Shown piece after piece: positions 18,669-63,388 of a stretch of 64,000 nt of DNA (position 1 is the first letter of the stretch; each line of letters starts with the position of its first letter). The notes under the pieces are model-generated. The model saw only the letters and a program-made list of their open reading frames with translations, did no database searches and was not told the origin of the DNA. Both the position numbers and the translations under genes were made by a program. The DNA is from Euglena gracilis (lineage: Eukaryota): the NCBI GenBank assembly GCA_039621445.1, contig CP154954.1:8124634-8188633 (forward strand), given 5' to 3'.

Positions 18669-18709
18669 GGGTGGGGGTCGACCATGGTCGCCCCCCGACC
18701 AGAGGGGGC

Positions 18710-33810: not shown

Positions 33811-35376
33811 GGATGCAAGTCTCCAGCCCTCCCGCAGAAGGACGGCCCGGGGACTGGAAATGTCCACAATGTGCAAACCACAACTATGCATCGAGGATTG
33901 TGTGCAATCGGTGTCACGGCCCGCGGCAGGTGGAAGGGGACACAACTGCACAGCCTGTGCGGGGCAACGGCACCTCTCGGCCCAGTCCTGGGGACTGGTA
34001 TTGCCCCAACCCAGCTTGCTGCAACCTGAACTACGCCTCACGACCACCCCATTGCTTAGAATTATATTTTTTTTCATCGGTGAATCTTTTTCCAGATTTT
34101 TTTTTTGCAGGCTGTGAAAAAATTTTGTGATTTACAGGTCAGTCAGAGGGGTGCAGTCCCCCCTGTGACCCCACCGTGACCCACAATGGGACCTTGGCAA
34201 TTCAAGGAAAAATGCCCCAAATGACTTATTTCACAGTTTTTTTGGTCCCCCCCCAAAGAAAGCCATTTCTCCCCCTGACCCCCCCCTCCAGTTCCCCGCT
34301 CCCCAGAGAGATGTGGAATGCCGCCCAAAGCCCGCGGTACGTGAAAAAAATTCTTCCTGCAAGTTGTTGGGATATTTTGTTTCTGAACTTTGTTAGATTG
34401 AAGCTCCTGGGCAAGCAGTGGCTTATGGTCCCGACTCGTGTGCAACCGCTGCAAGACACCCCCAGCGAGTGCAGCATTATACCTACAGCAGGCTGCTGTG
34501 ATGTGGTGTGGGATTCCCTTTAAATTCCCTTTTCTGCACTGCTTTCGTGTAGGGGATTGGGTGTTCAGCTCCCAATGCTCCAAGGCTCCCGTCCCGGTGA
34601 CTGGCTGTGCATGACGTGCCAGAACCACAACTATGCCAGCAGGACAGTGTGCAATCGGTGCCAAGCAGCCAAACCGGAAGTGGCAGACAGGCATTTTTTT
34701 ATGATGGCACCTTGAGGGGCTGAACTCCCCTGGACTGTGTACATCTGATCTGCAGTTGCCTGCACTGGTTGAATGACGCTTCCTGTGGCAGAACAATTTT
34801 ATTTTTTGCTTCCACCCCAGTGTTAGCGAAAGAAATACAAAAAGAAATGTTCTCGAAATTTCAAAAATGTGTCTGGAGTTTCTCTGGTTGGTTCACACTG
34901 TTCTCTTTTGCTTTGCATTTTATTTAGCATTCACAATAGAAATTTCCCCAACCTACCCTCTACCCTGACCCTACCCTACCCTGCTGGGTTTGATGAATTG
35001 TGGGTGAAGCAGGATCATCATTTATGAAACAAAAGGCCTGGTTGCAGCTCCTCTGTCATCTCTTGGGATGGCAGTGCCCGGCTTAGGGACAGAAGCCAAG
35101 CCGGCAGCCCCGAGTTTTCGGGCAGGCGACTGGATGTGCCCACAGTGTGGGGATCGCACCGTTGCTTTGAGTGTGACCCCTCCTTTTTGGCCCGGGGGGG
35201 GGGGTGCAGAGACAACCTGTAGGGGTTTGCAGATGGCCCGGCTATGCTCAAATCCCCCCCACGGGTCAGAAAATCCCCCCAAGCACTGGTGTTGTGGCAA
35301 CCACAACTACGCCAGCCGCAAGAAGTGTAACCGGTGTAACCAGCCAAAAACAACACCGGAGAGCTCAGAGGCATAG
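33811..35376 (+). CDS. RanBP2-type zinc-finger protein (four fingers; likely RNA-binding), 3' exons
   Basis: Exons ~33811-34041, 34433-34497, 34569-34684, 35046-35148, 35296-35376 give four (P/A)GDWxCxxCxNxNYASRxxCNRC fingers ending in TAG at 35374-35376. The start codon is not defined. Confidence 0.85.
34042..34432 (+). other. Non-conventional intron
   Basis: No GT-AG; 5' gacca...ccattgctt pairs with 3' aagcagtgg...tggtc; removal restores YASR/LVCNRC. Confidence 0.8.
34685..35045 (+). other. Non-conventional intron (CAG +4, CTG -8)
   Basis: agaCAGgcattttttt...aaaaggcCTGgttgc; removal restores the frame KPEVA/APLSS. Confidence 0.8.
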
Positions 35377-38347: not shown

Positions 38348-38373
38348 TCAAAAAAGTGGGTTTTGGCCCATTA

Positions 38374-38472
38374 ACGGGCGCCTGAATGGAAATTGACCGA
38401 CATAAACGGGCGCCTGAATGGAAATCGACCGACATAAACGGGCGCCTGAATGGAAATCGACTGACATAAACG
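38374..38472 (+). repeat. 32-bp tandem repeat, 3 copies
   Basis: aacgggcgcctgaatggaaat(t/c)gaccgacata repeated head to tail without spacers. Confidence 0.9.
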
Positions 38473-41400: not shown

Positions 41401-41726
41401 GGGGGTGCAAATTGGGGGTAATGTGTTTTTTTTGGCTGATTTTGTTGAAAAATGGGAATTTTAGGCAAGTGGGTAAATTTTTCCACTAGCTGGCCCTGCC
41501 AGCGAACCCCCCCCCCCGGGACTCCGTCCTGAGTCCTGTGTTTAAAGCGCAGGAATCAGGACGCAGTAACCCCCCAAATAACACCACCCAATAACACCCC
41601 CCCCCCCCCTCTGGGGCCGATTTCGAGTTTTTGCGCCCAAATAACACACCCCCTGGCATTTGGGCCATTTTTCAATGATGTTGGGGGGAGGGGGCTTAAA
41701 ACTTTTTCATACTTGGGGGTCAATGA

Positions 41727-42202
41727 CATACATCTCTCTAAGGTTTTGCGAACCCCCCGGGGGGGGGGGGGCGGCTGCAGCCAGCCCCGATTTGGGCCCA
41801 GCCCAGCCGCAGCAGCACCCCCCCCCTGGGGGGGGTGCTGCTAGCCCAGCTAGCCAGCCCCTTTTTTGGGGGTCCAGCCCAAAATTTTTCGGCGCGAAGC
41901 GCCGAAATTTTTTGAAAAACTGTGTTTAAAAGTGGCCAAAAATGGGGTTTGGGGGGCGTTTGGGGCATTTTTGGGGGGTTTCAGATGCATCACTTTTTTC
42001 AAAACTGTGTTCTGCAGGTCATTTTTGGGCATTTTTCCGATTTCAGTCCAGCTCGCCCCGGTTCGGGACCAGCCGGGACCCAGCCCCCCCCCCCCCCCCC
42101 CGGGGGGGGGCGGGCTAGCCAGCCCAAATTTCTAGCCAGCCCAAATTTCTAGCCCTAGCCCCGCCCCCCCCCCCCCCCCCGGGGTCCTTAAAGAGATGTA
42201 TG
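41727..42202. mobile_element. hAT-like MITE with perfect 8-bp TSD (copy 1)
   Basis: gtcaatga|catacatctctctaagg...ccttaaagagatgtatg|gtcaatga; second copy at 54615-55137. Confidence 0.9.
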
Positions 42203-43709
42203 GTCAATGATTGGTGGTCGGGACGACTAGCCCTTCCAGACAACCACCATCACTGGTGACCATTTTCTTGCGATGGGTCGCTGTATTGCAAAGTCTTCGA
42301 CCCAATTTCCAAGGCAGGGCCCAACCACCGAATATTGCTTTGGTTGAAGTCTGCCAGCCCCAAGTCTAAAACGTCCAAGAAAGTTTAAAAGGGATTCTTT
42401 TTCAACTTGCAACTTGTCAACTTTTCAACTTTTCAACTTGTCATCCCTTTCAGTCTTTCAAGCTGCGAGCGGCGAAGTGATGGAGTGAACAAAGTGATGT
42501 TGATTTCGACAGCAGCGGACCTTGCCTCATTAACCCCGCAGCGGCTAAAGTGTGCCTCTCGGATGACCATTCACCAAAGTGAACCTGCTTTCATCTCCCA
42601 CTGCGCTCACTGTCCGAACACTCCTTTTCATCCCATTTTGACCTTGTTTGTTCTTGGGTTGTAGACACCGAGGAAAACAGGGAAGGAATATTGCCTTCGG
42701 ATGAACTTGCTGAATCCCAAGTTAACCCCCAAGAGCAATCGACCCCAAAAGTACCGCTCAAGCTTCCCCCTGCTCACAAATCCACAGCCCTTGATCGGAG
42801 TGTAAGATAATAGAAGCATTTGTGCGCTTTTGCGGACCGCCGCCTCCAGCGGCGGGAGGTGCGCTTCTATTTGGACCCTGCCTGCACGATTTTTATTATT
42901 ATTGATTTCCTTTAGAAAACCCATCAAAATGGGGGGTGCGCTTGTAGCGGACCGCTGCCTTTGGTGGCGGGGGCTGCACTTTTGTTTGGACCCTGCGCTT
43001 GTAGCGGCCCCGCACTTCTATTAGGGGGAGGGTCACCCCTCCCCTGTGTCCATTGAACATCCCCTTGCCCAAGAAGGTTTGAAGGTTTGGCACCTCTCCT
43101 CCCAAAGAATGCAAGTATGTCTGTGGGAGTGCTCTCACCCAGCAAGGAACACCCCCTCCTCGGACCACGTTCAGTCAACTTGGCCATGGAATCTTGGGGC
43201 CAACCTGGTCGGGCCGTGGCGGGGAGGGGGGGGAGACATATCATTCCTCTCATACTCATGTATGTCCCATCAGGGTTGGAAACAATTGTGGCCCTGAGAG
43301 GCCTGAGAGGATTGGCCAGGATGGTGGTTGGATTGGAGTTTTTGTCTGGTTTGAACACCCAGGATTCAGAAGGGGTGGTACCATGCATAGCATCAGGAAA
43401 GGACTTGTGCTCCATCGTGTGTGGGACGCGCATTTGCCTCTCTGGACGTCAAATTCAATCGCAGGTGTGTCTGGGCAGAGATTATTTTTTTAAGTTTTGT
43501 GACCCGGGGGGGGGGGTGGGATTGGGTCCCGGCCGAGCCTCCTCGCCCCCCAGAGGTGGGGGTTTCTTCTATTTTCGTCGCGAAGCGCTGAAAATTTTTT
43601 TGGACTCCAAAATTGACCCCCCAAAGTGGGTCCCCCCCCCCCAGCCCCCCCCCCACCCCCCCCCCCAGGGGGTGGGTAGGTGGGTCCGCCCCCCATATCC
43701 TAAAAAACC

Positions 43710-43890
43710 TCTGGTGTGGGGTATCTCTTCTCTGGAAAGTTTATTTCAAAGTTCAAAAAACATGTTATTGTTCATTGATATTTTTTTTTGATTGTGTTCC
43801 ACATATGGCAAACAGCATATATGATTTGCACCCCACCCCACCTCCCATTTGATTGATTTTTCTTGAATATTTGATTTGGGGTTGTCCCCC
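43710..43890 (+). repeat. ~180-bp direct repeat (second copy ~45450-45635)
   Basis: ctggtgtggggtat...ctggaaagtttatttcaaagttcaaaaaac...ccacctcccatttgattgatttttcttgaatatttgatttgggg occurs twice. Confidence 0.9.
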
Positions 43891-46843
43891 CCCCCAAAGG
43901 AGGAGGGAGATCACTGATTGGAAAATGTTTTTTACAAGCGATTTTCAAACAATCTCCTCTGACGATGATAGCCAGTGATAAAAATAAAAGGAACAACAGC
44001 AAAGATGTGAGTGATGTTGGGGAACTTTTTGGATTTGGTTTTTAATTGATGCCGCGATTAATTATTATCAAAATGTTAGTGATGTTTAATTAATAATTAT
44101 TTTTAACTAATTTATAATAGCGGGACGTTGATTTAATGAAGGCGGAGCATCCCACACCAGATCATCAAGCGAAGTCCGTAGTGTCTATGTCTGACCTGCC
44201 CTCCGCTCCGATTGCTCTTTTGTAACACCTTTGCGGAGTTTGGGATAAAGAAGACCCTCTAAATAGGGGGTCATTATTTCTCTTTTTTGTCCAGAAAAGA
44301 CAAAGGTTTAAACAGAAAAAAGGAAGAAGTTTTTTTTGCAGGATTTTACCAAAAAAAATTCCCAAAAATGCATGCATTTCGGCAAAGCCCTGAACGTTCA
44401 CTGGGGGAGTGCATGTGCTTGCGCATGTGCTTGGCGGGCGCTTGGTGGCAAAGTACACAAGGTAAGACCCGCCAATCTCCCGCCACCTCCCTAAACACCG
44501 ACAAAAGGGCCAGAAGCGAACAACAGCGCCAGGTTAGAAGAGGGGATAAAGGGCACCCCCAAAAAAAACAGCTGCAGTGCACACAGGGAGCGCAGTTTGT
44601 CTGGGGTGGGGGAGAATATTGGGAATTGGGCTGTCCAGTTCAATTCTGGTTGAAGTTTTTGCATATTGGCAACATTCTGTTTTTGCATCAGGTCCCGGGA
44701 TAATCAGAAAAATGTTTCAGCAAAAACCCAGCCAAAAAATGATTTTTTGGTCATGCTACCGTTTAGGTGGCAATGCCCCCCCCCAGCCCGCTAGTTGGGG
44801 GGACCCACTTTTATGCACCCTCTATTCTTGGAACAAATCAACCAACAGAGTTTGATACACATTTTGACAGGGTTTTTGGAGCAAAAATGACATTTTATTT
44901 GAAACTTTTTTGACATAATTCACGAAATATCCCAGCTGCACCAAATGCCATTGCACCCTCTCAAATCCTCTGTCAAAATTTAAAGAAAGGCGGCAACCTG
45001 GTGGGCTCCACTACTGGTATGTCTCTACTACTGGTACTTCCATTAGTATGGCAGTCTCATACCAGTGGGTCCCCACGGCGGGGCGGGGGGGGGGGACGTC
45101 ACCCCCCTCTACATTATGCAAATGGGACTGATGAGCGATTTTGGCTGGGGGAATTCCGGTCGTTTCCGCTGCGTGGAGGTTGGTGCGGCATATCCTCATG
45201 AAAAGGATTGGGGTCAGGATAAGACCAGCGTTAGGATTTGGATTTTCAGCCAGAAGTTAGGCCGAAAACCTGAGAAATTGGGCCACATTTTAGTTTTAAC
45301 CCGCAGCCAAAAAGTATCACTGAATTTCGGCCAGATTTCAGTCGAAATCGAAACCCTGACCATATCCCTCAACCTCATTTTTCTAACTCGGCACATCAGC
45401 CCCCCCAAAAAATGGGTTGTTCCTGGGGCTGCCGAAACTTGGGTGTCACTGGTGTGGGGTATTTCTTCTCTGGAAAGTTTATTTCAAAGTTCAAAAAACG
45501 TATTATTGTTCATTGATATTTTTTTGATTGTGTTCCACATATGGCAAACAGCATATTTGATTTGCACCCCACCCCACCTCCCATTTGATTGATTTTTCTT
45601 GAATATTTGATTTGGGGTTCTCCCCCCCCAAAGGAGGAGGGTGTGTAATACAACAGGGCCCAGACCCCCTGTCATAGAGGACTACCAAAATTTCAAAAAC
45701 ACTGTAACAGTGTCAAAAAGTCTCAAGAATTGATTATTTCAAAAGCTCTGTCAAAAAACCATTCTCCATAGTTGCATTTAACAGTTTGTTCCCTGTTTGT
45801 CTGTTACCAAACCCTGCACTCTTGTCTCCGTTGATCTTTCCCCCACCCCTTTGCCTCCTCGGAAGCTGACCATTACTTTGTAACTGCAGCTAAATCCCAC
45901 TCCAGGTGTGAGGGGATTGCGTCTGCACCTATCCCATGCTTCTGTGTAAAATGACGATGGGCCCAGGGTACTTTGGGACGTATTGAAATTGAGCAGTTAT
46001 TTCATGTGTTGCATACCAGGCAAAACAGTTAGTGCTGATTTTTGTTTCACGCGGGAGATATTCAAGTTGCATTATGCATGCATTGCGAAAATTTTACAAA
46101 AACATTTTTTTTGCAAGTTTCTTTTGCATAATTTGCCCTTCCAATACTTTGATATTTTGTGGTGGATTACAAGGGAAATCGCTGTTCCACCAGACAGCTG
46201 GAAGTTGAATACCAAGTTGGGACCATTTTTGCATTAAAAGCTGTTGCCAAATGAAATATGAATGCATGCAATGCGACAAACAGAAGCAAAAAAGGACATT
46301 GCTTTTTGAAGAAAAATTCCCCCAAAACGTCAAAAATCAGCAGAAAAACAATGCCAAATGAAAACCTGTGCAAACCCGCATAATGTCACCGTTGATTCAT
46401 TTGTCATCGGTGAAAAACTGGCCGAATAATTGTCCAACCATGCACCATAATCACTACAGCACAAGCACATGCTGCATAACCAGCAGGGGTTTTCAAAGCC
46501 GGAAGGGAGCTGACCCCCCTCCCCTCCAGCCAGCCAGCAAGCACCTTTTTCCAGCCGGCCCGCGGGACCCCCCCCCCCCCCGGAGTTCTGAAGAAAACCC
46601 CTGATAACTAATAATCTTGATGATCACAATGAAGCATTTTCCTCGGTGGAGGTGGAAAGAAAATCCTCCTCTCCTGTCGTCTCCAGCAGAGAAGTGTACG
46701 ACCCGGAGCTCCTGAAGGACTTTGTTTGGAACTTGCATTTTTTTGCATTTTGTTTTGCATTGTTTACATTTTCTGTATCGAATATTTTGAGGTGCCTTGT
46801 TGCATGTCCCTCTGCCACAGCTTTGGGGTGATTGTATGGGAAG

Positions 46844-47846
46844 CAGGCCATTGTTTAAGGGTTCGCAGTACCCCCTTGGGGGGGGGGGGGCTGGACTGCA
46901 GTCCAAATTTGGCTAGTGTAATGGTCTCCAGGGGGGGAGTCCGCTAGCAGGGCCAGCTAGTGGAAAAATTTTCCTCCAGAAGCACCGGATTTTTTTTATT
47001 CACAAAACTTGCCAAAAAATGCCCATTGTTGTCATTGTTGGATTTTTGGAACAAAATCAGCCAAAAAACATGTTTATAACCTCATTTTCACCTCGGCAGC
47101 GCCGGAGAATTTTTTTTCCAGTTGGGGGGACGCCCCAGACTGGGGGAGGAAGTCTATTTTTTCCAGTGTCTAACAAAATGGCTACAGTGCGGCTAAAAAT
47201 TACGGAAGACAGAAATTTTGGCAAAATACCCAAACTTTGCCATAATTTTTTTTCTCGTAATTTTCTCACTCCGTCGGTTTCCGACGCCCTCTTCCAGTCC
47301 ACTTCTGGTTTGTGCTCAAAAGAACACAATACTCATCCCAATTGAATGCCAGTTTCTTCAATGGTATATGCTCAGCCAGCTCCTTGAAAAACGGGCGACC
47401 GGCATCAAGCACCTAGGGAAAATCACAGCAAAAATCGGTCTGCATTAAAAATCACTGACACCTGATCAGTGGGCACAATTCTATCAGAATTTGCAGCGAA
47501 CGGCCACCATTCTGCTTTCGCCAGCGAATATTTTGCCCATGCCTGACCGATCTTGAACGTTCCCCCATTTTTTTGGCAAGTGTTGCTGGGCGGGTACGTG
47601 CGACAACACCTCGAGCGATTGCAGCCACTGGGGGACAGAAAAATACGTTGAACACGCAACCAGGAGAAAAATGTCGCTCACCTGTGCCGGAGGTTAATCC
47701 TTCGTGGGGACCAGATTTTGCCAAAATTAATTTTTCCAAAATAAAAAATTTGCCAAATTTTTTTTCCCGTAATTTTTTTTGCCGTAATTTTTGTCTTCCG
47801 TAATTTTTAGCCACACTGTACCCTGGGGTCTTTAAGCAATGGCCTG
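46844..47846. mobile_element. hAT-like MITE, CAG...CTG termini, perfect 8-bp TSD
   Basis: atgggaag|caggccattgtttaag...tttaagcaatggcctg|atgggaag; related to 53209-53629. Confidence 0.9.
47185..47818. mobile_element. Tc1/mariner-like non-autonomous element nested in the hAT-like MITE
   Basis: ta|cagtgcggctaaaaattacggaagaca...tgtcttccgtaatttttagccacactg|ta. Confidence 0.85.
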
Positions 47847-49178
47847 ATGGGAAGGCAACTGGTCTGGGAGGAGCCTGGTCACCTGGATCATAGATCATTT
47901 AACGCCGTGTGACCCCCGGGGGGGGTTCGCGTGTGTGGGCAGGGCGTAGCTTAAGAAAATTTGACCCTCTGGGGGGTCCAGCCAGCCAGCAGCCTTTTTC
48001 CAGCCCGGGACCCCCTCCCTTTCCCCCCCTCAACGAGATTTATTTCCAAGCACCCTTCGGTGGCTGGACGGCAACAGATTTTTCGCTTTTGTGGGTCAAA
48101 AATGGACAACAAATGGGTCAAAAATGGGCGAAGATGGGTCAGATTTGGCTGTCCAGGACATTTTTGGGGTCAAAAAGTCGATTTTTTTATAGCTGGCAGT
48201 TTTTAGGACATTTTTTTTTTCATTTTCGATTTTTTTAGTTCCTGGTTCGACCCCTGGTCGGGCCCAGTTCCAGCCCAGGGGGGAGGGGGGTCAGCCAGCT
48301 GCCTTTTTCCAGCCAGCCCAGATTTTCCAGCCTCTGAGGTGGACCCCCCATAAAAAAGCACCCTGGTTGGAGGCCTCTGGACCCCCCCCCCCCAGGGGGG
48401 TGCGCCATGGGTCAAATTTGGCCGATTTTTTTTTCAGCGTTTTTGGCTGATTTAGGCTGGATTTCGGACCTCCCCTAAGGATTTCCCTCAGTCCTAAGGG
48501 ACACTAAATCAATTTTTTTTTGCCGATACAATGTCCCATGCTTTTCGCTCCGGGTGGACCACTTTCGGTTTGTTACCAATGGGGTTCGGCCAAAACGCAT
48601 TGATTTCTTGAGCTATTTCATCCTGAGAGACCAAAGTGACCCCTCCGCCCCGTGGAGGAGGAAGCTGGGTTTTGAAAAGTGACGTTTTTTTTTGAAAGGG
48701 AAATTAACCCCCCCGCTTCCCCCCGGTAAGCAATGCTTTGCAGAGGGTGCCTCCTCCACATGTGGTTCTCCATACTACATGGCCCGGGGGATTTGCAAGG
48801 AGGGATGAGCACCGGGAACTCCATCAAACAAAATCCCAGGTTTCCTCAGCCCCAATGCACACACCTCTCAGAACTGATCATGTCCCCCAGCACACCCAGC
48901 AACAAGGTTGCCTCTGGCATATTTTGAAGATGGTGCCAAAGGAAATCAGTGTTACGAATTGAATGAGTGGAATCTCGGCTGGGTGCTCTCTCTGGTGGAA
49001 AGTCCTTGGGGGGAGGAGCTGTGTGGCATTGTTGAAGCTGTGGCCAGGCTTCACGGGGAACAGAATGAAGGGGCTGAAAAGCAGGCACAAAAATGGATGG
49101 CAGCATCCTGCACAAGGGTTCTTTGCGGACATTTCGGATTGTGCATTGAGGTTGCCATTTTTTTTGGCCCCTGAAGCA

Positions 49179-52100
49179 ACCTTAGGAAGCGACGCTGCCC
49201 CTGCCAATGAAGATGAACGCCGGCTGGCCCAGCTGGGGTACAAGCAGGAGTACACCCGCATCTTCAACACATGGACCAACTTCGGGCTCACCACCAGCAT
49301 GGTCAGCGTTCTGCTGGGCATCGTGCCCTTGTACACTTATTCGCTCCAGACTGGAGGTGTGTCCTCTCTTCCATCGCTCTCAAGCCCCCCCCCCCCCAAC
49401 GTGCCCAACAAACACCTTGTTCGGGCCCCAGCTGTTGTCAGGTGCGTTGCTGGGTGAGGATGGGGCTGTGGGGGTGAAAGCCACTGCCTCTTGGGCTGGT
49501 GCACTCATTTAGCACCTGTGTGAACCCCTCCCCAAGGGGGGTTTCAAGAATGGGTGGGTGGGTTGGGGCTGCTGGACCCCCCCCCCCCTCCCTGGGGGGC
49601 ACCATGGGTCACATTTTGGCCCGGCCGAAGGCCAGGCCAGAGAATTTTTTCAAGGCCCATTTTCCGGCCGATTTTGGCTTGGTATTGGGTGGGTGGGTGG
49701 TTGACCCCCACTGGGGGGGGGGGGCATGCGGGTTTGGACCCATGGAAGAATGGAAACCCCCCGGTCATTAAGCGAATCTGGCTGGAACCCAAAGCGAGCG
49801 AACCTTTCAGCGCGAATAATTGGAAGGGAGCTGAATAATGGATCAATTTTCAGCCCTTTTTTTTGCAAAATCCCCCCAGGTGATTGGATCCGGTTTAGTG
49901 ATCGGCTGCAGGTGAGGGGGGGTGGAAAAAAAAACGAAAGACGTTGAGTGCATATTTGGCAGTTGTTTTTTTTTTTTTATGCTTCTTTTTTGATTTTAGC
50001 GTATTTTAAAAAAACAAAAAAAAAAACGCCTATGAGGTTTTGCATGGAAAATTTTGTGAATGCATATTTTCAATCATTTTTGGCATCTTCTGGGATCTTT
50101 TCTGCCAAAATTTTCTTTCCACTAAAATGAAAAAGGCAATTTTTTTTGCCTTTTTGGATGTTCATTCAAAGTTTGGTTTGCTGAGGTTTGATGTTTCTTC
50201 ACAACGAGTTTTTTCACAACGAGTTTTTTCAAATGAGATTTCCTTTTTTTATTTCCTTTTTTTGTTTTTTTTTGGCGTTTTTTTTCAAAAGAAATACGGT
50301 GTTTTTTTAAAAACATGGTTTTTCTCAAAAAGAATTTGCAAAGTCCCAAGCATGATTGAGTGTTAATGACTGACTGGTTTTCTGGTGAAAAAAAGTGAGT
50401 GGCTGGTGTTTGAAGAGTGGACGTAGCCCCGCTCCCCCTGGGAGTTGGTAAATAATTGTATGACCCTGAAAGGGTTTCCTTATTTCTGAACTGGCAGGTA
50501 TTTTGGCAATTAACCGGGGCATTTTCACAAGGTACTTTGGGCAGTTTTAAATTTGCCCGAGATGGGGTCTGTCTGGTCGGTCGGTCTGGTGCGTTGGATT
50601 GAAGTACCTGCCCAGACACTCGAGGGCACTCTGAGACCGCCCCTCGGTGCAGAAGGGATGGGAAGCTTTTTTTTCGTCTTAAGGACCACCCTTTGAGGAC
50701 CGCCCTTGGGCCCAAGGGATGGCCAATGGCGAATCCGGGGATCGAACGGAGGCAAAAATCAAAAATAATTCAAAAGGTCGAAAAACGCGTTTTTTGCCGT
50801 TTTGGATGGATGGGCGATGGTTCAAGGATGCCCCTTCATTGCCAAAATACGGCTATTTTTTCGTCCATTTTTTTCACTGTGCTGGGACGGGAAGTTCTTT
50901 TTTTTTTTCAAGGACTGCCCTGCCCCCCCCCCTCTTGGTTCCCGGACTTGCCCCCATTGGCACAATTGCACAAATCGTTTTTTTTTTTTGAAGATTGCCA
51001 CATCCCAAAATCCGAACAATATCATTATGACTGGCGCCCAAGTCAAGCAGTCATTCCCCAAGCATTCCGGGCACAGGCCATGCGTGTGTGTTCCGGGACT
51101 ACCCAGCAACGACCATCAAACGGAAAGTTGCAGGAAAGATTCTGAGAAGGAGACCGAGCTGTGCGAGTCATGGCCAGTCCCCCCCCCCCAGGACCCCCCC
51201 ACATCCCTCCCCCCCAGGACCCCTCCCCCCCAGGACCCCCCCAGGCCCCCCCCCCAGGACCCACCCGGGGGCGGTACCCACAGGACCCACTGACTGTGGA
51301 GTTCCGGGCGCCTTCGGCGCCTGCTACCGGGGGGGGGGGCTACCGCCCCCCCCCGGACCCCCCCCTGTCTTCAAAATAGCCTCACCTTGTGGTGCAAAAT
51401 TTTTGCCAAGTGTTGCGGGACCCCCCAGGACCCCCAGGACAGGGTACTGCGGGGGGAAACTGACCATAAGTGAGCTGTGCACCATGCTGCCCATTTTGAA
51501 ACTCGTTGGACCTGGGCTGATTTTGGTCAACCCCAGCACCATTTCATTTTTTGCTCATTTCATTTTTTGCTCAGATGTTTTTTTTAAAAAAATCAAAAAA
51601 TATAAATAGCACATTTTATTGGAGAATCTGAACCAATTGAACCCGAAACAGTATTAAAAAGAGAGAGGGTTCATGTGATATTCAACCCGGTTTGGAATTG
51701 CACAAATTGCAGTTTTGGAAGGTTTTTTTTGAATTTTTAAAGATCTGCCCAAATGTGTCCCCCAAGTCTTTTGGCCCCCAATTTCACATCCCAGAGTGTA
51801 TTACGGAAGTTGGCTGATTTTTGGACAGAATGCTTCCTGGCTCAAGTACACTCAGCCACCTGGTGTTGCCCCCTCACCTTGTGGTGCTCTTTCCCAACAG
51901 GACCGGCCGTGATGCTCTGGAGTTGGGTCGTGATCGGTGTAATGGCCAAATCATTGCTTGGCTCCGCCACTGTGCTCACACTCACAAACAACAGTTGATG
52001 CCCAGAAATGTGAGGGAGTCATTTTGGGCTGTTTATCCCAATCACTGTAGATCGCAACACACATTTGATTGTGGAAATGACTTTGACTTCGAAGAATTCG

Positions 52101-55100
52101 CATTTTCACCGCCTTTTTAAAAAAAAGATTTTGTCCATTTTTGCTTGTTTGTTTTATGTGTTCAATCAGTTGACATTTTCGAAATCAGCAGTTTCCAACA
52201 CGTGTAAGTTGAAATGGATGGATTTTTGTCCATCCTAGAATTCAAGTTTTAATTGATTGATTGATTAATTTTAAGGTTTGTTTGTTGGTGGTTTTTTTGT
52301 TTGCAGAACACACATTTTTTGAAGGAAGATTACCCATCACCTCGCGGGGGGGGGGGGGGGGTTGTGGGCAGGTTTGAAGGGAGGGCATTTTTTCCCCTCG
52401 AGGGATGGGTGATAATTTTTATAAACCAGGCTGATTTTTGGCCATTCATAGTCTTTCTCACGTCACAAATGTATCCAATGAATCTTGTTTTTCATTTGCT
52501 TTGTGCACGATTCACAAATTCCAGGGGGGTTATACAATTGGGATCCCCCAAAAACGTACCAAAACGAAGTCGAAAACTCAAATGATTAATTCGGGGCAGG
52601 CTGGATCAGGCTTGATTTAATAAATTTTTACAGTGCTGTGGGGTGGCTGCTGGCCCCCCCGCGGCGGGGGGTGGCTGATTTGAGTTCCGTGTCGAGGCAA
52701 TCCAGGCAAATTTCTTTTGCCCCCCCCCCCATGTCCAACGACCAGTAATCCCACCACTGGGGGGGGGGTTGTTAGACACGGGGTCCAAGAAAATGCATAT
52801 AGGTTGGTGAAACCTCCGAAAAGGTGTCCTCGACAGGGGGGGGGTCGTTAGACATGGGGGGGGCAGGTCGTGGACGTGGGGGTAATGACCATTTTCGGGA
52901 AACGCATTTTTGACCCCAGCTCACACAAGGTCGTTGTGGTATTTTCCGCCAACTCCGCCACAACAAGCAATGGCATGGCCAGGACACTGTTCGTGGTTTC
53001 CTCACTGGCTGAGATCTGCGCTGCGTATCCCACAACCAGGGTATCATGGGGATCTGGAACAACCTTCAGGATGGAGGAGGGCTCGACCCCTCCGTGGTGG
53101 GTGGGGGGCCGCCCTCTGCTCGCAAAGTGTAATGTTCCTGCATTCCATTGCTTTCAGTGCTGGTGATCAGAAATGGATGGATTTCAAGGAACAAGTGACT
53201 GGCTGATTCAGGCATTTGCTTAAGGGATTGCAGTACCCCCCCCCCCCCCCCGGGGGGGCTGGACTGCAGCTAGTCCAAATTTGGCTAGTGGGTTTTCTAG
53301 CAGACCCCCCCCCCCGGGGGGGTCTGCTAGCAGGGCTAGCTAGTGGAAAAATTTTTTCCAGTAACCGGCGCGAAGCGCCGAAAATTTTTTTTGGGACCCC
53401 CAAATATGGCCAAAAATGCCCGTTTTTGGCCATTTTTGGAAATTTTTGGAACAAAATCAGCCAAAAACCTATTAAAAACCTCATTTTTCCTCCGGCGCGT
53501 AGCGCCGGAGGAAAATTTTTTTCCAGTCCGGGGGAGGGGGGGGTCTAGCTAGTCCACTTTTTCCAGTGTCTAGCCGATTGGCTAGCCAGTCCCCCCCCCC
53601 CCCCCCGGGGGTCCTTAAGCAAAAGCCTGGGCTGATTCTTTTGAACGTGGGCGGTGCCCGTCGTAAAGGTTTGGTCCCCCCCCCCCAACCTTGCCATGCA
53701 GCCCTGCCCGCAATGGGAGCACTGTATTTCTGGGCTTACCGCTTAGGCGGCCCCGAGTGGGGTCCAGGATATTTTTTTTTGCTTTGATTGCACGCTGGTG
53801 TATCCCGGTATCCGCGCACGCTGTTATATCCAACCATTTTGATGCACAAATTACGCACAAGCAAGGCCTACCACCCGCCCACCCTTCCACACACACACCA
53901 CCCACACCCACGGCACATGCATGTTCACACACCCGTTTTCTTTCCACATCTCTTCATAAGTGATCATGAGTTCCAGCCTTTTTTTTTAGTTTTTGGATTG
54001 AATCCTTTTTTTTTGAGAAAACAATCCTGTTGTGCCCCTTCTCCGCTTGGACCGCCGGATGGTGTAATTTGCTAGGGCAGATTGGGGGTGTCGCCAGTGG
54101 CGGCTATTCCGGCGCTGTGGTCATCGGCGAAATTGTGCAAATCACAACCGGCATTGCAATGAATCCAGCCCAGACTTTGGGGATTTACGCCGCACCCAAG
54201 CCTCTTTTTTTAAAAAAAATATTCGTTTTTATTGCATTCAAAGTGTAGCATTATTTATGCCCCAAAATTTTCAGTACACTGAAAACAAGGCCCAATTAAT
54301 TGCTAAACAAATTAACCCCCTCAATAAGTGCACAATGGCTTTATAAGTGCGCACCCCCAAGGGTCCGAAACCACCTCCCTAACAAGTGCGCACCCCCCCC
54401 CCCAAAGGAGAAATTACTGCCACATCTCAGGTCAGAAAGCACACACAATTCTCAGAATTGTCCTTCTCAGATCAAACATTTCTACCGCCCAAGCCGAAAT
54501 TGGAAACACAATCACTCTTAGGTGGCCGGATTCGCATTTAAGCTTTTTTGTGTTGGTTTGCGCATTTCCGCAAATTACCAAACTTTTTTATTTCGGCTGT
54601 GTGGCTCTGGGGGGCATACATCTCTCTAAGGTTTTGCGAACCCCCCCCCGGGGGGGGGCGGCTGCAGCCAGCCCCGATTTGGGCCCAGCCCAGCCGCAGT
54701 CAGGGATGGGATTTTTTTTTTAAGTTAAGGACCGCCCCTTAAGGACCGCAGCACCCCCCCCCAGGGGGGGGGGGCGGTGCTGCTAGCCCAGCTAGCCAGC
54801 CCCTTTTTGGGGGGTCCAGCCCAAAATTTTTCGGCGCAAAGCGCCGAAATTTTTTGAAAAACTGTGTTCAAAAGTGGCCAAAAATGGGGTTTGGGGGGCG
54901 TTTGGGGCATTTTTGGGGGGTTTCAGATGCATCATTTTTTCAAAACTGTGTTTTGCAGGTCATTTTGGGGCATTTTTCTGATTTCAGTCCAGCTCGCCCC
55001 GGTTCGGGTCCAGCCGGGGTCCAGCCCCCCCCCCCCGGGGGGGGGGGGGGCGGGCTAGCCAGCCCAAATTTCTAGCCAGCCCAAATTTCTAGCCCTAGCC

Positions 55101-58100
55101 CAGCAACCGCCCCCCGGGGTCCTTAAAGAGATGTATGCTGGGGGTCTGAAAACACAGAACAAGAGAGTGCAAAAAATGAACGAAATTCTGTTTTTGGCGG
55201 TGTGACCCCTGGGACTTTGGTGAGAAATGGTGTTTTTGGGCGTCCAGAAATGGGCTCCGCACGTCGAAACCCGCGGGACCCCCCCCCATGGGAGTGAAAA
55301 AAACGCAAAACAGCAACACAGGAATGGGACCTTTACTGATGTTGTTGTTCCTATCCAGGCAAGGACAGGACCAAGGACAGCCACCAGAGCCCACCGGATC
55401 CCACCGGATCTGCAGATTCGGTGACCATTGGTACAGATTTGGTAAGATCTGGTAACAAAACCAGATGATTTGGGCCAAAAACACCTGAAAATGACCAAAT
55501 TCACTCAGAATGCTTGTTCATTGCAATTTTATAATCGATGGGCGCTTTTGCAGATGTTTTTCTCTCATTCAGTCATTTTTGGTTGTGCCTGATTCTTGCC
55601 ACGTGGTGCGATGCACGCGGTGCTGGCAGGGATTTTTTTTTCGGCGCCGACAAGTATATCCCAACCCCCCCCCCCCTCTGGGGGGATCCCCCCTGGGGGG
55701 CTCGGCCAGACCCACCCACCCTCCCCCCCCCTCCCCCCGGATTCCAAGTTTTAAAAACCCCCTGGGTGCCGCACGCGGTGTGAAACACGCGGTGCGGAAG
55801 CCACCCACCCACCCCCTGGGGGGGGGTCAGGGGACCCTTGTCTCGTAATGATTGAATATTTGTGTGCGAAAGGACATTGTGCAAGTGGTTAACGATTGTA
55901 TCACCTTGCTACTGAGCTAAAATGCAATAAACCAATAAAAAAACAACAGACAAGCAAAAAATCCAGACGAAAGCAAGGCATTTGAAATCCAGTAAAGTGT
56001 TGGAAGAATTACAGAAAATTTCTGCAGGAGGCAATATGCAATGGTCCGTTTGACAATTTTACGAAGCCAGAGGTTCGATGCGTCGCTTTCAGGCCAACGT
56101 TTGTCTAGGGAAGATATTTCCTCAAAGTTGTTCTTCTCTTTCCGAAGAGACATCATCCACTTCCCATCCACCATTTGATCAATGATGCGCATTAATGGTT
56201 TCAACTTGGGAGAAGGGCATGTCTCCGCAATGCTTTTTTTTTTTGAACCCCCAAGGCTCCTGCCACAAACGCCGGCACAGAATTGAAAATCTTGTGGTGT
56301 GAGCAGCCCCCACTCCCCACCCCCTCCCCATTCCTTGTTTTTCCCACGGTGCCGATTGTTAGGTGAAGGTGTTCTTTCGATGCCGAAGAATTCCCCCCCC
56401 CCCATGAGGTGGATCGGGGGAGTGTCCCCCACTTCCTGGTGGGTGTGGGTTGAACCCACAGCCATGCCAACGTTGGTTGACCCGTCCACCCTCTTGGTGA
56501 CAGTGCTCATTGAAACGGGTGGGGACGCTAGTGCAGGGGGGGGGGAATGCAACTTGCATAATTTGCATTTTTTTTTGCATAATCAGGTTTTCCCGAAATT
56601 TGCATTTTTTTTTTGCATTTTTTTGCATTTTTTTTGCAAAAAATATTTTGCCCTGGAAATTTTTTTGTAGTTGGTTGCCGTATGTTTGGATTTTTTGCAT
56701 TTTTTTTGCATTTTTTACATAAAATATTTTGCCCTTGAAAAAAATTTTGTAGTTGGTTGGCATATGTTTGGATTTTTTTGCATTTTTTGTGTTTTTTTTG
56801 CATAAAATATTTTGCCCTGGAAATTTTTTTTGATTTTAGGCAGCAAAGCTCTGTCATATTCCAGCTTTTTCTCAAGGTTTTCATGCAAGTTGCATTTTTT
56901 TGCATTTTTTTGCATTTTTTTGCATTTGCATTTTTTTGACTTGCATAATTTGAAGGGCCAAGTTGCATTCCCCCCCCCCCCTGGCTAGTGGGAGGGGAAT
57001 ACCCTCTTATCTCAATTGGATGGGGAACCGGCGGGGAAAGGAGTTGCTTGGCGCGGACCCTTGTGGTGGCTGGGGTGGTCAACACCCTCTCCGACACGAT
57101 GCTCACGGGCAGGCAGCTTTTTCGCCAGAGGTAGGTGGGCCACAGGACCAAAGGTTCATAGGTTCATTCAACACCTGTGGTGACCCTCCGGGGGGGATGG
57201 GTAGGTTTTTGAGATTGGGTGGGTGGGTTGGGACCGCTGGACCCCCCCCCCCCCCAGGGGAAGGGGTGTCCTGTGCCATGGGTCAGATTTTGGCCCGGCC
57301 AAAGACCAGGCCCAACAAATTTTCGGGGGCTTTTCAACCGATTTTGGCTGGATTTTGGGTGGGTGGGTCAATGGTTGACCCCCCCCCCCTGGGGGGTTGT
57401 GGGTGGGGGGTTTTTGAAAACAGTGGGTGGGCGGGTTTGGGCCCAGGGTCCCTCGCGGGGGGGGGTCACCAAATGAATCCATGAATCTGACCCTCCAGAT
57501 TCAATGACACCATTGGGCAAAAATTGCCTGTGTGCAGGACTGTGCTACATCTCGGTGGTGTGGCACCTCGTGGGCTGCATCTTGATCATTGCGCTCATGA
57601 ACTGCTATGCTCCGACCCACAAGTCGGTGTCGTATGTGTTGACAGAGTACAACAATTCTACTGGTTTCACACCCAAGCAGCAACTTCATTGGCTCCAAAA
57701 CCGGCCTTTGCTTGAGAACTCCATTGGGGTCCACTCCAAGGGGGTCCATTGTCTGATATGTGATTTGCTTTGCATTTTGAAGGTTTTTTGTTGCAATGTC
57801 ACAAGCACAAGCAACACGCACCTTGGAAATCAAATGTGGGAAATGGGTTCAATGTCAAAATGCATTCCCAAATCCCAAATTGCGAATTACATATGAAATT
57901 GATGAGCTTGGTCATAGGTGGACATTTCAGAATTCTCTTCACATACTGGAGTCATACTCATGTTATTCTCACAAAATATTGATTTGTTTTCTATTAAAGT
58001 TATCCGAACAGGTTTTGTCACCAGACACAATTTTTTTGAAGTGTTTCTGCTTGTGTCCATCAAATATTTATGTTGGGCTTATTGGCTTGCTTGCTGCCTC

Positions 58101-61100
58101 CACCACATTCACGGGCTACGACACAGCCTCTCACGTAGCAGAGGAAACTCACAACTCTCATAACTCTACCCAGGACATTGGACGTTTTTGAAGGTGATGA
58201 CAACCATGAAACAACGCAGCTGTGCTCGTTCTACATTTATTTACAATTGCCTTTTATTCATAAGTTATTTTATTTTTACGAGATGTACATTATGATTTTT
58301 TTTATTTATATCACAAGTTAATACATCTGTTGTATTATTTTTAATTGAATTTCGCAACAGGATGCCCAGCAAGGGGACTTGCAGGATTTGCTTTTTTACA
58401 ACCTTTTCAACAACCAACAAATCTTTGTGCTCCCGGGTGCCTGCCCATTGCAGGCACACCCTCCAGGGAGGAATCAATTTGAAGGCACCGCCGCCAAATT
58501 GTGTCATAGCACTGCCCCTCCCCACTTGCCTTCCCAAAGCATCCCCCAGCAGTGCACAGGGCGGTCCCGTAAAGGACCGCCCTTTGAGGACCGCCCTTGG
58601 GGACGGCCAATGGCTTCTCCAGGCGTCGGACAGGGTCGGAAATAAAAAAAAAGGTCAGAAAAAACACATTTTCTGCCGTCTTGGGTGGATGGGCGAAGGT
58701 CCAGGTGCGCCAGAAATAATTGTTCCCCCAAAATCGACCCATTTTTACCAAAATATGCCATTTTCTGCACCATTTTTTTGTGCATTTTCCATTGAAGATG
58801 CTGGGACGGAATTGTTTGTTCAACGACTGCGCTGGGGGTGCCACCTTCCTTCTGGTTTGCAGAGCATTTTTCTGAAAGATTTTTAAGCCATAATGGTAAA
58901 ATGATGAATGCATTCATGATTTCAAGATTTGATGGTAACCACGCGGATGTCGAAAGTGGATGTTGTCCCCATTGCAGACTGGGTGGTCAACTGGTTCCCA
59001 ACAGGGGTTTTCTTAGTATAGGACCCCCGGGCCCGGGGGGGGGGGAGGTAGGCAGGGGGGGGAAATATGCACGGTACTTTGCAGTTTTCATATTTTGGGT
59101 TTGCGCGTTTTCAGTTTTTTTTGCATTTTTGAGCTTTTTTTGCAGTTTTTTTTTGATTCTAGTTTTGAGGAAACCTGAGGTGTCTATTTTTTTGTGCTGG
59201 ATTATATGTTTGAAGGGTGTTTCTCAAGAAAAAGCATCACCTGTTCATGAGTTGTGTTGTGTGCAGTTATCCCACCAATTGTCTTGCCCCCAACTGTCTC
59301 GCAAATTCCCAGGTTGTAGACCATTTGGCAATCCCTTAAGAACAATGTTCAAAGTTTGTGGTGGTTGTTGTAGATTTTTTTCATTGTGACATGGGGAAAC
59401 TTCACCAGGTGATGGACCGAAAGTTCCAAATCGAACATCCCCGGCAAGAAATGAAGCATTTTCCCCATATTTGGAAAGGAAACCGTTTGGCATCTTTATG
59501 GGCGTGATCGGTACAAGTTTTGGTGCAGGAAAACCGGTGTGACCCGGCATCCAAACACATGATTTCAGTGCATTTCAGTGCATAAAAATAAAACCATGTA
59601 CAGTGCACCTTGATTGATTGCTTCCATTTTTTGTTGTCATCGGCTCCAAAGCAGTGCAAAAAAGAAGTTAGGTGAATTGGGGTGTGCTCGTGTGGTCGCA
59701 ATTTACGTTGTTTTGCATATGCACACCATTTCAGCTTGTTTATTGTTATTTTTTTTTGTTGAAGTGCAGTTTTTTTTGCAGTTTTTTTTGCAGTTTTTTG
59801 CAGTGCAGTTTTTGACCAGCCCCGTGCAGTGCAGTTTCTCCCCCCCCCCCCCGGGGGGGTAGGGTGGGTGGGTCTGGCCGAGCCCCCCCCCCCATCAGGG
59901 GGTCCCCCCAGAGAGGCCCAGGGGGGTCCCCCCAGGGGGGGAGTGGGATATACTTTTCGGCGCCAAAGGCGCCGAAAATTTTTGAAAATGTGCTATTTGG
60001 CATTTTTTTGTGAGTTTTTAGCCTTTTTCGGGAAAGTGAGTGGGTCCCCCGGGACCCCCCCCCCTTGGGAGGCGCCTCTTAAAAAAAAAACCCCCTTTGG
60101 GAACCGACCCCCCTCCCATCCAGCACAGATGATGGCACAGATCCAACTAACAGCTAACTGGGGGCCCCTTCCTAAGCGATCCTGTTTGACCCCACCCCAA
60201 AGTCCAAACCCCTCCACACACCCGAAATATCAACTAATTTGACGTTTAAGAATCCAACTGTCCAACAAAGGTTTCAAAAACTTCATTCACTCACGTTTTG
60301 AGCACATTTTACAACGATCCAATTGCAAGTTTTTTGTCTATGTTAGAACCCCCCCCCCTGAAGTTGTTGGTCCAAGAAAATTCAGACGATTCAGTTCCCG
60401 GGGGGGGGGTCTGAACCCCCCCTTCCCCACTCTTAGGCAGCCGAATTCACACTTAAGCTTTTTTGTGTTCCTGCACCACCATACAGATGAACACAAAAAA
60501 ATTATTTTGGTGTGTGGCCCTGGGTGCGTTGAAGACACGAGGGCAAAAAATGAACAAATTCCTGTTTTGGGGGGAACAGGGACCCGGGGGCTTTGTAAAA
60601 AAAAAAGGCAATGCACGCCTTAGCGCCCATGCACAAAGAAAAAACCCTTAAGTGCGAATTCGGCCGCCTGAGCCACTGCTGGCCTCCGTTCCATTCCCAG
60701 TGATCCACCCCCGTTGCGGAATCCTGGAAAAGGGAATCCTGGCAACCACCAGATTGCCGAACTCCAACCGTTCTGTTCCACCCCCCTTGCCATGATCGGT
60801 TCGGTGATCAACTGCCTTGTACTGGACAGGCTTCTCTTAAGCCCCACCATGTGATGTGCAGCCGCTCAGGAAACTGTTGTGTACACAGTACGCCACCAGA
60901 AAAGTTTTTTTGATTACCCCCCCCCCCTAGTCGTACGACCACCCCTCATCTATGACCACCCCCCGGTCACAGGTTGCAGGTCATGGGGGTGTTATGACCA
61001 CCCCCCCCCGGTCACAGGTTGCAGGTTGCGAAAAAATTTAACCCCCCAAAATAAGTCCCCCCCCTGGCCGGTCCGAGCAAAAATCCATGAAATGGACCCC

Positions 61101-63388
61101 CCCAAAATAAGGTCCCCCCTGCCGGCGCGAAGCGCCGGATTTTTGAAAAATGGGACATTTTGGGGGGGTAAAAAATGCCATTTTGGGACAGTTTTCACAC
61201 ACACCTACGACCGCCCCCTCATCTATGACCACCCCCCGGTCACAGGTTGCAGGTTAGGGGGGTGTTATGACCACCCCCCCCGGTCACAGGTTGCAGGAAC
61301 CCGGTCATACGACTAGGGGGGGGGGGTAGGTGCCCTGGTGCCATGTTTTGCTGAGAATTGTTTCTCTTTGCTTCTGCCACAGGGTTTTTTGCATCATCTA
61401 CGTCATACATCAGTTTTCAGGGCCCAGGGGCTGATTGCTGGGGGGCTGGGTGAGAAATTTGGACCGCTGGCAACCTGGGGATGGAACCCCTGGCCACTGC
61501 GCTAAAACAAGCACAGAGCAGCATCGTCTTGTATTCTGATTTCGGAATTGTTTGGGTCTTTTGCTTTTTTTCTTCGATTTTCGGGTAGTTTCTCCCCTTT
61601 TGGCACACCGTACACACAACCCTGTGACAAAGGTAGATTCCAGCTGTGCTTGCCTTTCTGTCAGTTACCCCGCCGGGATCGTTCCAGGTGGGGCTGCACT
61701 CAGCGGAACGGAAGCCTGGGGGCCGGGGGTCATCTTCATCCTGGGCCTGAACTTCGCCATCCAGGATATGGAGCAGGGCGTCCGTCGCTTGTGTCGAAGG
61801 CCCCCCAGCCCCAGGGCCGGGATCAATAGGACTTGGCCAGTGGTTAATGGGTTTGCAGAAGGAGGGGGGGCTGAGAAAAATGGGGTGGGCAGTGACACAC
61901 CCTCTGCCATGGAGGACCAGGCAGCGTGACAGATGAACCACGCCATTATGCCCCAAGCAGCAGCCATTGAAGTTGTGGGGAAAAGCCTGCGGAGGGAAAC
62001 TGGCTGTGTCGTGTTGTGTATGTGTGGGTGTGCTGGACCAATGCACACAAGGGGAGGATGCCCGGGATCAAGGAGGGGGGCTGCCTTTTTTTTTCAGTTC
62101 GGTTGACCCCCGGGGAGGTGCCGCGCCAGCAGACTGCTTTTTTTGTAATTGGCAGTTTTTTTTTTGCTTGTTTGTGCGGGAGATGTTTGGCCCTGGGTTG
62201 AGCTCAGTTCCAGCTGGGGGACTCCCAGGGTTGGGGATTGTTATGCCCCCCCCCCCCGCCAGGCATTACATTAAACCCTACTGGGGAGAGGAGGGGGTCC
62301 AGCCAGCAGCTTTTTCAGCCTACCCCCCAGGGGTCAGGGGTCGGCAAGCGACACCCTGGTGCAGATGACCTCACGAATTCGGACAACGCGGTGGGCGCTG
62401 CCAGCACCCTCTGGGTCTCCCTCATGGGGGTCCCCCTCGCCGTGCTGTGCAACGTCATCACGTTTGTGGCCATCGAGTGCAGTAATTGTGCCAACCTTAC
62501 TTCTGCCGCTCGCATGGTGTGCGGTCGATGCATTGTTGTGTTTTTCCCAGTCAGCTTTTATGATTGCAGTTCTGGTGATGAAAGCATGTCGAACCACGAA
62601 GTTGGATCACGTCCGGGGCAGAGGGAAAAGCTGGCATCCTTTTGGCCAGCGACTGGGAAGGCAAATGTTTGCTATTGGCAAATTGTTGCCAACTGGCAGG
62701 ATGGGCCAGCTCGCCCTGGTGCATCCACTGTTTTTGCAGTTTATTTTTTGCTTTTTTTTGCTCCAGGCAGCTGTTCTGTGCGCGCAGGTCTGTTTTCCCC
62801 AGCTCCGCTGTCCCGGTTCTGTTACACGTCAATCGGGGGACGGGTCCCCGTCCGGGCCAGCTTTTCCATCCCCCTTTCTGGCCTCGCAACGACATGCTCG
62901 GCGCGCTGTTTGCCAGGCATGTGCTGCTTTGGGTCCTCGCCTGCTGTTTTGTGCCATGTGGCAGTTTTTGTTTTTTTTGCTTTCGGGCTGTGTCTGCCGC
63001 TCATTTTTTCCGCGATGTGCCGCTGGCTTCTAGTCAACCTGATCATAACGCATAACAATGATTGAACTTTTGCACTGACGACATGTGTATGTATATATAT
63101 TGGACAGATATATATGTATGGAAGAATGCTGGCTGCTCTGGGGGCAGCATTTTTCCAGATTGCTTGCAAATCTTTGTTTTTCAGTTCCAGTCAGAAATTA
63201 GCCCTTTGCAAAGTCGCCGTGTTCTTTGCGCTGGAGCCCAGTCCTCGTTGGCCTCCTACATCATCGCCATCTTTCTGCGAATCACGGTGAGCCGCCCAGA
63301 GGTTTCTTTTCCGGTAATGTTCAGTCGGAAGAGGAGGCAAAGAAACCCCTGGAGCGGGCACACGTTCGTACCAGCTGAGTTCAACCTC
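49179..63388 (+). CDS. APC-superfamily amino-acid permease (ACT family, GABA/choline permease or BAT1-like); multi-exon, incomplete at both ends
   Basis: Phase-consistent exons ~49179-49356, 51901-51943, 52983-53033, 53712-53761, 54034-54193, 57056-57106, 57536-57670, 58059-58167, 60780-60823, 61725-61770, 62364-62516, poorly bounded pieces in 62780-63141, ~63234-63293 and 63357-63388 give LAQLGYKQE, GGPAVMLWSW, SLAEICAAYPTMGALYFWA, WTAGWCNLLGQ, GYDTASHVAEET, SAARM and SYIIAIFLRITVSRHTFVPAEFNL. Confidence 0.9.
49357..51900 (+). other. Conventional GT-AG intron
   Basis: gtgtgt...ctctttcccaacag; joins TG/GPAV. Confidence 0.85.
51944..52982 (+). other. Non-conventional (intermediate, AG-ending) intron
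   Basis: 5' ggccaaatcattgcttg pairs with 3' caagcaatggcatggcc; ends in AG but lacks GT. Confidence 0.75.
53034..53711 (+). other. Non-conventional intron (CAG +4, CTG -8)
   Basis: aacCAGggtatcatgg...ccatgcagccCTGcccgc; restores YPT/MGALY. Confidence 0.88.
53209..53629. mobile_element. hAT-like MITE, CAG...CTG termini, perfect 8-bp TSD, inside a non-conventional intron
   Basis: ggctgatt|caggcatttgcttaagg...ccttaagcaaaagcctg|ggctgatt. Confidence 0.92.
53762..54033 (+). other. Non-conventional (intermediate, GT-starting) intron
   Basis: gtcCAGgat...atcCTGttgt; restores EWG/PFSAW; exact junction slightly ambiguous. Confidence 0.75.
54615..55137. mobile_element. hAT-like MITE (copy 2 of 41727-42202)
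   Basis: Same CATACATCTCT/AGAGATGTATG ends; flanks ctgggggg / ctgggggt (7/8). Confidence 0.88.
55627..55764. mobile_element. Short CAG...CTG MITE with degenerate 8-bp TSD
   Basis: ggtgctgg|cagggatttt...aaaaccccctg|ggtgccgc (6/8). Confidence 0.65.
56534..56983. mobile_element. CAG...CTG MITE with ttgcattttt internal repeats and a 7-bp flanking duplication
   Basis: gctagtg|cag-Gn-aatgcaacttg...caagttgcatt-Cn-ctg|gctagtg. Confidence 0.85.
57107..57535 (+). other. Non-conventional intron (CAG +4, CTG -8)
   Basis: gggCAGgcagctttttcgcca...tgggcaaaaattgcCTGtgtgc; restores MLT/GLCY. Confidence 0.88.
57671..58058 (+). other. Non-conventional intron (CAA +4, TTG -8)
   Basis: accCAAgcagcaacttca...tgaagtgtttctgcTTGtgtcc; restores TGFT/SNIY. 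Confidence 0.85.
58168..60779 (+). other. Non-conventional intron
   Basis: accCAGgacattgga...tccaaccgttCTGttcc; restores HNS/TPLAM. Confidence 0.75.
60824..61724 (+). other. Non-conventional intron
   Basis: ggaCAGgcttc...gaagcCTGggggcc; restores CLVL/GVIF. Confidence 0.78.
60917..61326. mobile_element. MITE with TA target duplication
   Basis: ta|Cn-tagtcgtacgacc...ggtcatacgacta-Gn|ta; internal tatgaccaccccccggtcacaggttgcagg repeats. Confidence 0.85.
61771..62363 (+). other. Non-conventional intron (CAG +4, CTG -8)
   Basis: gagCAGggcgtccgtcgcttg...caagcgacaccCTGgtgca; restores IQDM/DDLT. Confidence 0.85.
63294..63356 (+). other. Minimal 63-nt non-conventional intron (CAG +4, CTG -8)
   Basis: gccCAGaggtttctt...aagaaacccCTGgagcg; restores ITVSR/HTFVP. 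Confidence 0.8.

Follow-up and report, generated by a model that had tools for sequence, protein, structure and literature searches.

The analysed window is a repeat-rich stretch of 64,000 nucleotides from the genome of the euglenid Euglena gracilis (assembly GCA_039621445.1, contig CP154954.1, positions 8,124,634 to 8,188,633); all coordinates below are those of the window. It contains a zinc-finger gene, a candidate membrane-protein gene, and short elements with CA..TG ends flanked by target site duplications (TSDs). Six of these elements were listed in an initial annotation as MITEs (miniature inverted-repeat transposable elements) as well as candidate intron donors. Here transposons of this kind are considered as a likely source of the nonconventional introns found in the first gene and predicted in the second.

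Genes, introns and elements of the locus

The zinc-finger gene combines GT-AG and non-GT-AG introns. Three of the latter, denoted zA, zC and zD, are defined by RNA from two studies.

33811..35376, forward strand: RanBP2-type zinc-finger gene with five coding exons (Pfam PF00641, RNA joints, open frame)
34042..34432, forward strand: nonconventional intron zA, RNA-verified, 391 nt; CA..TG ends at the 3+5 spacing, junction repeat 6/8
34685..35045, forward strand: nonconventional intron zC, RNA-verified, 361 nt; a CAGGC-ended element at 34688-35040 (353 nt) plus 8 nt, junction repeat 6/8
35152..35298, forward strand: nonconventional intron zD, RNA-verified, 147 nt; the inner motif TTGCTT keeps its register, and the junction repeat is 5/8

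The intron zC lies 7 kb upstream of the listed elements. The RNA joint 34682/35044, which skips 361 nt, is covered by 53 and 30 reads in two raw RNA runs from different studies, and by one contig set. The intron zC is spliced out, lacks GT-AG borders and has the structure N3-CAG..CTG-N5|R. An assembly frameshift at 34548 was considered and rejected, as the RNA reveals an additional exon and a 47-nt GT-AG intron. RNA reads of the gene have a loose end at 33810 that resembles a spliced leader and matches the 'tail' part of the leader known from Euglena, a motif that also occurs in seven papers on Euglena. Two alleles are seen in the reads at four exonic sites (33975, 34034, 34497 and 35355). The stop codon is directly followed by a 7.08-kb GT-AG intron (35377-42453) packed with repeats.

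The second gene is predicted from the sequence, and we assume that it encodes an APC-type amino-acid permease. Its nine candidate nonconventional introns were placed with the published splice code itself, so that their junctions are predictions. At 62800-62900 the permease-like frame seems to shift inside one exon, which would reflect either an indel of the assembly or an allele that is broken.

49177..62516, forward strand: candidate membrane-protein (permease) gene, 11 exons, 340-codon open frame, nine predicted nonconventional introns
41727..42202, forward strand: MITE of the CATAC family, perfect 8-bp TSD, within the 7.08-kb GT-AG intron in the 3'-untranslated region of the zinc-finger gene
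54615..55137, forward strand: MITE of the CATAC family, TSD 7/8, its interior enlarged by an insert of about 45 bp, within the predicted permease intron p5
46844..47846, forward strand: MITE of the CAGGC family, perfect 8-bp TSD, 5' of the placeable permease exons
47185..47818, forward strand: nested element of 634 bp inside MITE 46844, with CAGTG ends and TA flanks, presumably Tc1/mariner-like
53209..53629, forward strand: MITE of the CAGGC family, perfect 8-bp TSD, within the predicted nonconventional intron p3
55627..55764, forward strand: short CAGGG-ended element, TSD only 6/8, the weakest of the six, within predicted intron p5
56534..56983, forward strand: AT-rich CAGGG-ended element, 7-bp TSD, within predicted intron p5
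28516..28874, no strand assigned: an additional MITE, whose ends are related and whose 8-bp TSD is perfect, overlooked in the initial annotation

The placement of 41727 is supported by RNA, as a loose end at 35376 matches 42454. The positions of the other five relative to exons are predicted: 53209, 54615, 55627 and 56534 would lie in nonconventional introns of the permease gene, and 46844 upstream of those exons that can be placed.

The perfect 8-bp TSDs described earlier at 41727-42202, 46844-47846 and 53209-53629 are indeed present, and the 7-bp repeat at 56534-56983 is perfect. Of two TSDs called near-perfect, that of 54615-55137 deserves the name (7/8), whereas that of 55627-55764 (6/8) is of a kind often reached by chance, with 12 such repeats observed against 6.2 expected. 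The control set consisted of 988 CA..TG pairs within 19300-64000 whose terminal inverted repeats (TIRs) match in at least 10 of 12 positions, and the expected values were obtained by permutation. Perfect 8-mer flanking repeats occurred in five of these pairs, compared to 0.15 expected, and perfect repeats of 9-12 bp in none. One of the five, 36617-38200, was dropped, as it is located in a short tandem repeat. Additional short CA..TG elements were seen at 46484-46603 and 60450-60654, with flanking repeats of 6/8 and 7/8, respectively.

The six elements had been assigned to one diverse family. This is not borne out, as there are at least four families: CATAC, whose two members (41727 and 54615) are identical in 416 of 425 positions with homopolymers capped; CAGGC, whose members (46844 and 53209) agree in 300 of 343 aligned columns; and two CAGGG-ended singletons (55627 and 56534) with unrelated interiors. 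Two families thus have two full copies each inside 45 kb. All elements have CA..TG ends, but two of them end in CAT..ATG, not CAG..CTG. The (C/T)TAAG motif said to be shared by several of them occurs at +12..+16 in seven of eight ends of the first four elements, but in none of the four ends of 55627 and 56534. The G/C runs are real, with 2-6 runs of at least 7 per listed element. Recent activity is supported for the CATAC family, whose copies are 97.9% identical, and less strongly for the remaining families. The listed elements are non-coding, have TIRs and TSDs, and span 138-523 bp, with 46844 about 370 bp long when the nested element is subtracted. This agrees with the initial description of non-autonomous DNA transposons with 8-bp TSDs, and judging from their structure the six elements are likely non-autonomous transposons of the cut-and-paste type.

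Element ends and intron junctions

The code of nonconventional introns is 5'-N3CDG-/-CH'GN5-6|R, with preferred spacers of 3 and 5 nt (Nomura et al. 2025, PMC12501133). The MITE ends CAG..CTG occupy the outermost three positions of the element, whereas under the code these triplets lie farther in, 3 nt from the start and 5 nt from the end of the intron. Thus the claimed match of element ends to the intron consensus holds once this offset is added (positions +4 and -8..-6 of the intron), but not at the intron termini themselves. The ends fit the code only if the intron takes three bases of the left TSD and five bases of the right one, that is, exactly one 8-bp TSD.

If so, the corresponding 8-nt box (5+3) should be repeated at the two junctions. 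It was considered in 12 nonconventional introns, the three RNA-defined ones of the zinc-finger gene and the nine predicted ones of the permease gene. Identity is 54/96 (56%) in the box and 40/192 (21%) outside. None of 100,000 permutations reached this value, the averages being 4.5 (observed) and 2.8 (permuted) matches per 8 positions. As the permutation retains the shared junction consensus (2.8/8), the excess is specific to individual introns. In the RNA-defined introns alone the identity is 17/24 in the box and 10/48 outside (p=5e-5). When the right flank is slid, 49/96 positions match at offset 0 and 22-35/96 at offsets of one to three nucleotides in either direction.

The ends themselves are also similar. 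A profile was built from eight MITE ends with the CAG core (the first three bases) excluded, and applied to a background of 6,597 CA-starting 16-mers. The top 5% of these contain 12 of 24 intron ends, representing seven of the 12 introns, and the best site outside the training set is the 5' end of zC. With positions 6-16 only, eight of 24 intron ends remain, which was equalled by one of 300 column-shuffled profiles. This likeness is restricted to the ends: none of the introns has its interior in common with another one, and no such interior recurs in the window as a whole element.

Published junction tables of euglenids were compared by eye; the authors had fitted these junctions to a consensus. 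Three introns contain perfect repeats. Firstly, in the strain-specific intron 4 of gapC in E. agilis, with CAT..ATG ends, the 5+3 box holds a repeat that is perfect over 8 nt (Milanowski 2016, PMC4770533). Secondly, the same is observed in intron 12 of tubB in L. spirogyroides, with CAGGCC..GGCCTG ends (Milanowski 2014, PMC3935182). Finally, in intron 13 of tubB in M. pyrum, with CATAC..GTATG ends, the perfect box repeat extends 2 nt over CA (PMC3935182). These ends, CAT..ATG or CAGGCC..GGCCTG, resemble those of the two families of the window. Over 25 tubulin rows the box identity is 98/200, where one row per species and position was retained, and extra gene copies, the E. gracilis tubA 5 C/I row and E. 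quartana tubA 5 (four exon bases only) were excluded.

Origin of the nonconventional introns

The most natural explanation is that transposons with 8-bp TSDs and ends of this kind gave rise to the nonconventional introns of Euglena, via relatives of the six elements; we consider this likely. A transposon would insert at random, duplicating 8 bp. Its paired ends would form a stem recognized by the non-spliceosomal system of Euglena. Cuts placed 3 nt ahead of CAG and 5 nt past CTG (positions from PMC12501133) would then remove the element and exactly one TSD. The reading frame would be restored without a scar, provided that base 6 of the TSD is a purine. Exonic copies would be tolerated, since they act as introns from the outset, and would decay to ordinary nonconventional introns, while intronic copies, such as the six listed here, would remain ordinary MITEs.

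A number of observations weigh against this explanation. None of the six elements is itself an intron, as all lie within larger introns or outside the placed exons. In favour of the donor role, the RNA-verified zC shows the anatomy that was predicted, along with an end related to theirs. However, the interior of zC does not recur in the window, and its kinship with the MITEs is limited to approximately 16 terminal bases. It folds no better than shuffled sequences (z -0.91), its 14-nt terminal duplex is equalled by 18% of random CAG/CTG pairs, and the joint expected of an empty site is absent from the single probable DNA run examined. The intron zD has no CAG/CTG core. As for the box, nine of the 12 introns were placed using the code, three of these nine require spacers that add up to 7 or 9, three of the nine show only 3/8, and the fixed CAG/CTG adjoining the box partly forces its sharp edge. 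When the end profile is slid out of register as a control, one side is not clean, with 4-5/24 ends at +1 to +3 and 0-5 over all slid registers. Finally, 39 nt of exon 1 (33924-33962), considered as a candidate intron in frame, fit the published code and have no RNA joint, so that the code by itself is insufficient.

One alternative is that the order was reversed or convergent. The splicing system would be older, and transposons with fitting ends would have been selected because their exonic insertions are harmless, or excised intron circles would re-insert as MITE-like copies. Indeed, the splicing code acts on synthetic 50-nt introns devoid of transposon sequence (PMC12501133), excised introns are reported in a review to form circles, and the same ends occur in several unrelated families. 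However, TSDs with a constant length of 8 bp, at intronic sites that are unrelated, point to a transposase rather than reverse splicing, and the convergent version retains the MITEs as intron donors, differing only in the order of appearance. We regard this history as improbable.

Slightly less probable still is that the repair of double-strand breaks, or selection favouring slidable junctions, produced the junction repeats, and that the likeness of MITE and intron ends is fortuitous. Milanowski et al. (2016, PMC4770533) interpreted the 8-nt repeat seen in the most recent gapC intron as a footprint of repair, 84% of all E. agilis introns, including the conventional ones, are slidable (PMC12501133), and most older introns show only 3-5/8 in the box. 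However, repair predicts no set length or position, whereas the 5+3 box is filled by each of the three perfect repeats from the literature, one of them with 2 nt more over the CA of the element. Identity at positions -5 and -4 (8 and 7 of 12 introns) is no lower than at -1 and -2 (5 and 6 of 12), unlike the gradient of slide tolerance. Moreover, the sharing of inner TIR sequence between intron ends and MITEs argues against this explanation.

The transposon origin leaves a choice of the mobilizing enzyme. The superfamily is probably hAT, because 8-bp TSDs are combined with short CA-starting TIRs. The TSDs of three listed elements and of 28516 are perfect 8-mers, and the others are 7/8, 6/8 and 7 bp. 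Terminal matches reach 13/14 in four listed elements and are weaker in 55627, and the likeness of the TIRs fades past approximately 16 bp. The TIRs of hAT elements span 5-27 bp, and the hAT MITE Mar starts with CAG; Mar-like MITEs and the elements considered here share 8-bp TSDs, short CA-starting TIRs and the lack of coding capacity (PMC3517528). On the other hand, several families of the window are GC-rich (0.55-0.65) rather than AT-rich.

A transposase of the P superfamily, or another one generating 8-bp duplications, could have acted in the same way, and such an enzyme appears about as doubtful as the repair origin of the junctions. The TSDs of the elements also fall within the 7-8 bp of this superfamily. 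CA..TG ends occur in P elements, but the literature searched yielded no terminal consensus for these. The window includes a 7-bp case (56534) and two predicted introns with a spacer sum of 7. The TSD of the P element is 8 bp, those of 1360 and Galileo are 7 bp, and the TIRs of certain P-family MITEs are very short (PMC3698922). However, the TIRs observed here, of about 14-16 bp, lie inside the hAT range, in contrast to those of canonical P elements (about 31 bp), and the CAG start shared with Mar also speaks for hAT. Merlin, which occurs in E. gracilis and has 8-bp TSDs, is ruled out, as its termini are GG and all element ends here are CA.

None of seven open reading frames (ORFs) from 24071-36586 matches a transposase in Pfam, the permease half of the window not having been searched against any library, and a crude six-frame look for the transposase dimerization motif revealed none. 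Neither did a partner encoding the THAP-domain transposase of the P superfamily come to light in these searches. The statement that the autonomous partner lies outside the window is consistent with both results, although these are weak tests.

A broader form of the transposon origin has about an even chance of being correct. Nonconventional splicing would be a transposon-tolerance machine tuned to hAT elements with 8-bp TSDs, the 3+5 ruler being the TSD. The shared junction consensus would be the target preference of the transposase seen twice, and the still-active CAGGC and CATAC families would keep making most of the intron set.

Several other features were observed in the window. A 17.5-kb satellite with 34/78-bp units (1129-18671) lies between two 52-bp tandem arrays of inverted orientation (636-1080 and 18882-19136), and together these may form a single giant element of the foldback kind. 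At 29937-33680, ORFs are surrounded by elements whose ends are long and inverted and which have subterminal tandem repeats. One ORF (31803-32396) has a weak PHD-finger match below the Pfam cut-off, and a similar cysteine-rich ORF occurs near 21300-21900. Broken ORFs at 24300-27100 on the reverse strand, two of which had no Pfam matches, presumably are the remnant of a non-LTR retrotransposon.

Comparison with known systems

The origin of nonconventional introns, which constitute 72% of E. agilis introns, is stated to be unclear, and MITEs are suggested as a source (Nomura et al. 2025, PMC12501133). Both zC and most of the predicted introns obey the code of that study (paired CAG/CTG ends, spacers of 3 and 5, a purine at the exon start). 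The CAT..ATG ends of one family of the window fall outside the code tested there. The available text names no element family or TSD length, draws no connection between 3+5 and an 8-bp duplication, and does not contain the word duplication.

The MITE-origin hypothesis itself dates from 2014 (Milanowski 2014, PMC3935182; 2016, PMC4770533; Mikina 2024, PMC11282704). It has in common with the present case the TIRs, the TSD-like repeats at the junctions, the ongoing gain of introns, and a repeat of 8 nt at the most recent intron, which was ascribed to break repair. In the available text of these papers no concrete family or superfamily is named, and the word hAT does not occur in PMC3935182 and PMC11282704. 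In the literature searched, subscription papers, figures and the SI appendix of PMC12501133 aside, no printed link to hAT, no named families and no equation of the spacer sum with an 8-bp TSD were found. Thus the proposal of a MITE origin and the existence of transposon-derived introns elsewhere were already known, and the concrete families and the link 3+5=8 appear to be new within that literature.

This link equates a TSD length with a genetically measured sum of spacers, and so makes a ten-year-old hypothesis directly testable with the existing knock-in assay. It would also account for the consensus shared by both junctions, and the MITE families point to candidate end-binding proteins for the machinery of nonconventional splicing.

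A further parallel is provided by the introner elements of Micromonas, Fritillaria and Amoebophrya, which likewise are DNA transposons that become introns by using a part of the TSD (PMC11282704). However, introners have GT/AG-type or altered spliceosomal sites and, according to the same text, TSDs of 3 nt or 3-5 nt, whereas in Euglena a stem-measuring system would split an 8-bp TSD into 5+3, with no terminal dinucleotide.

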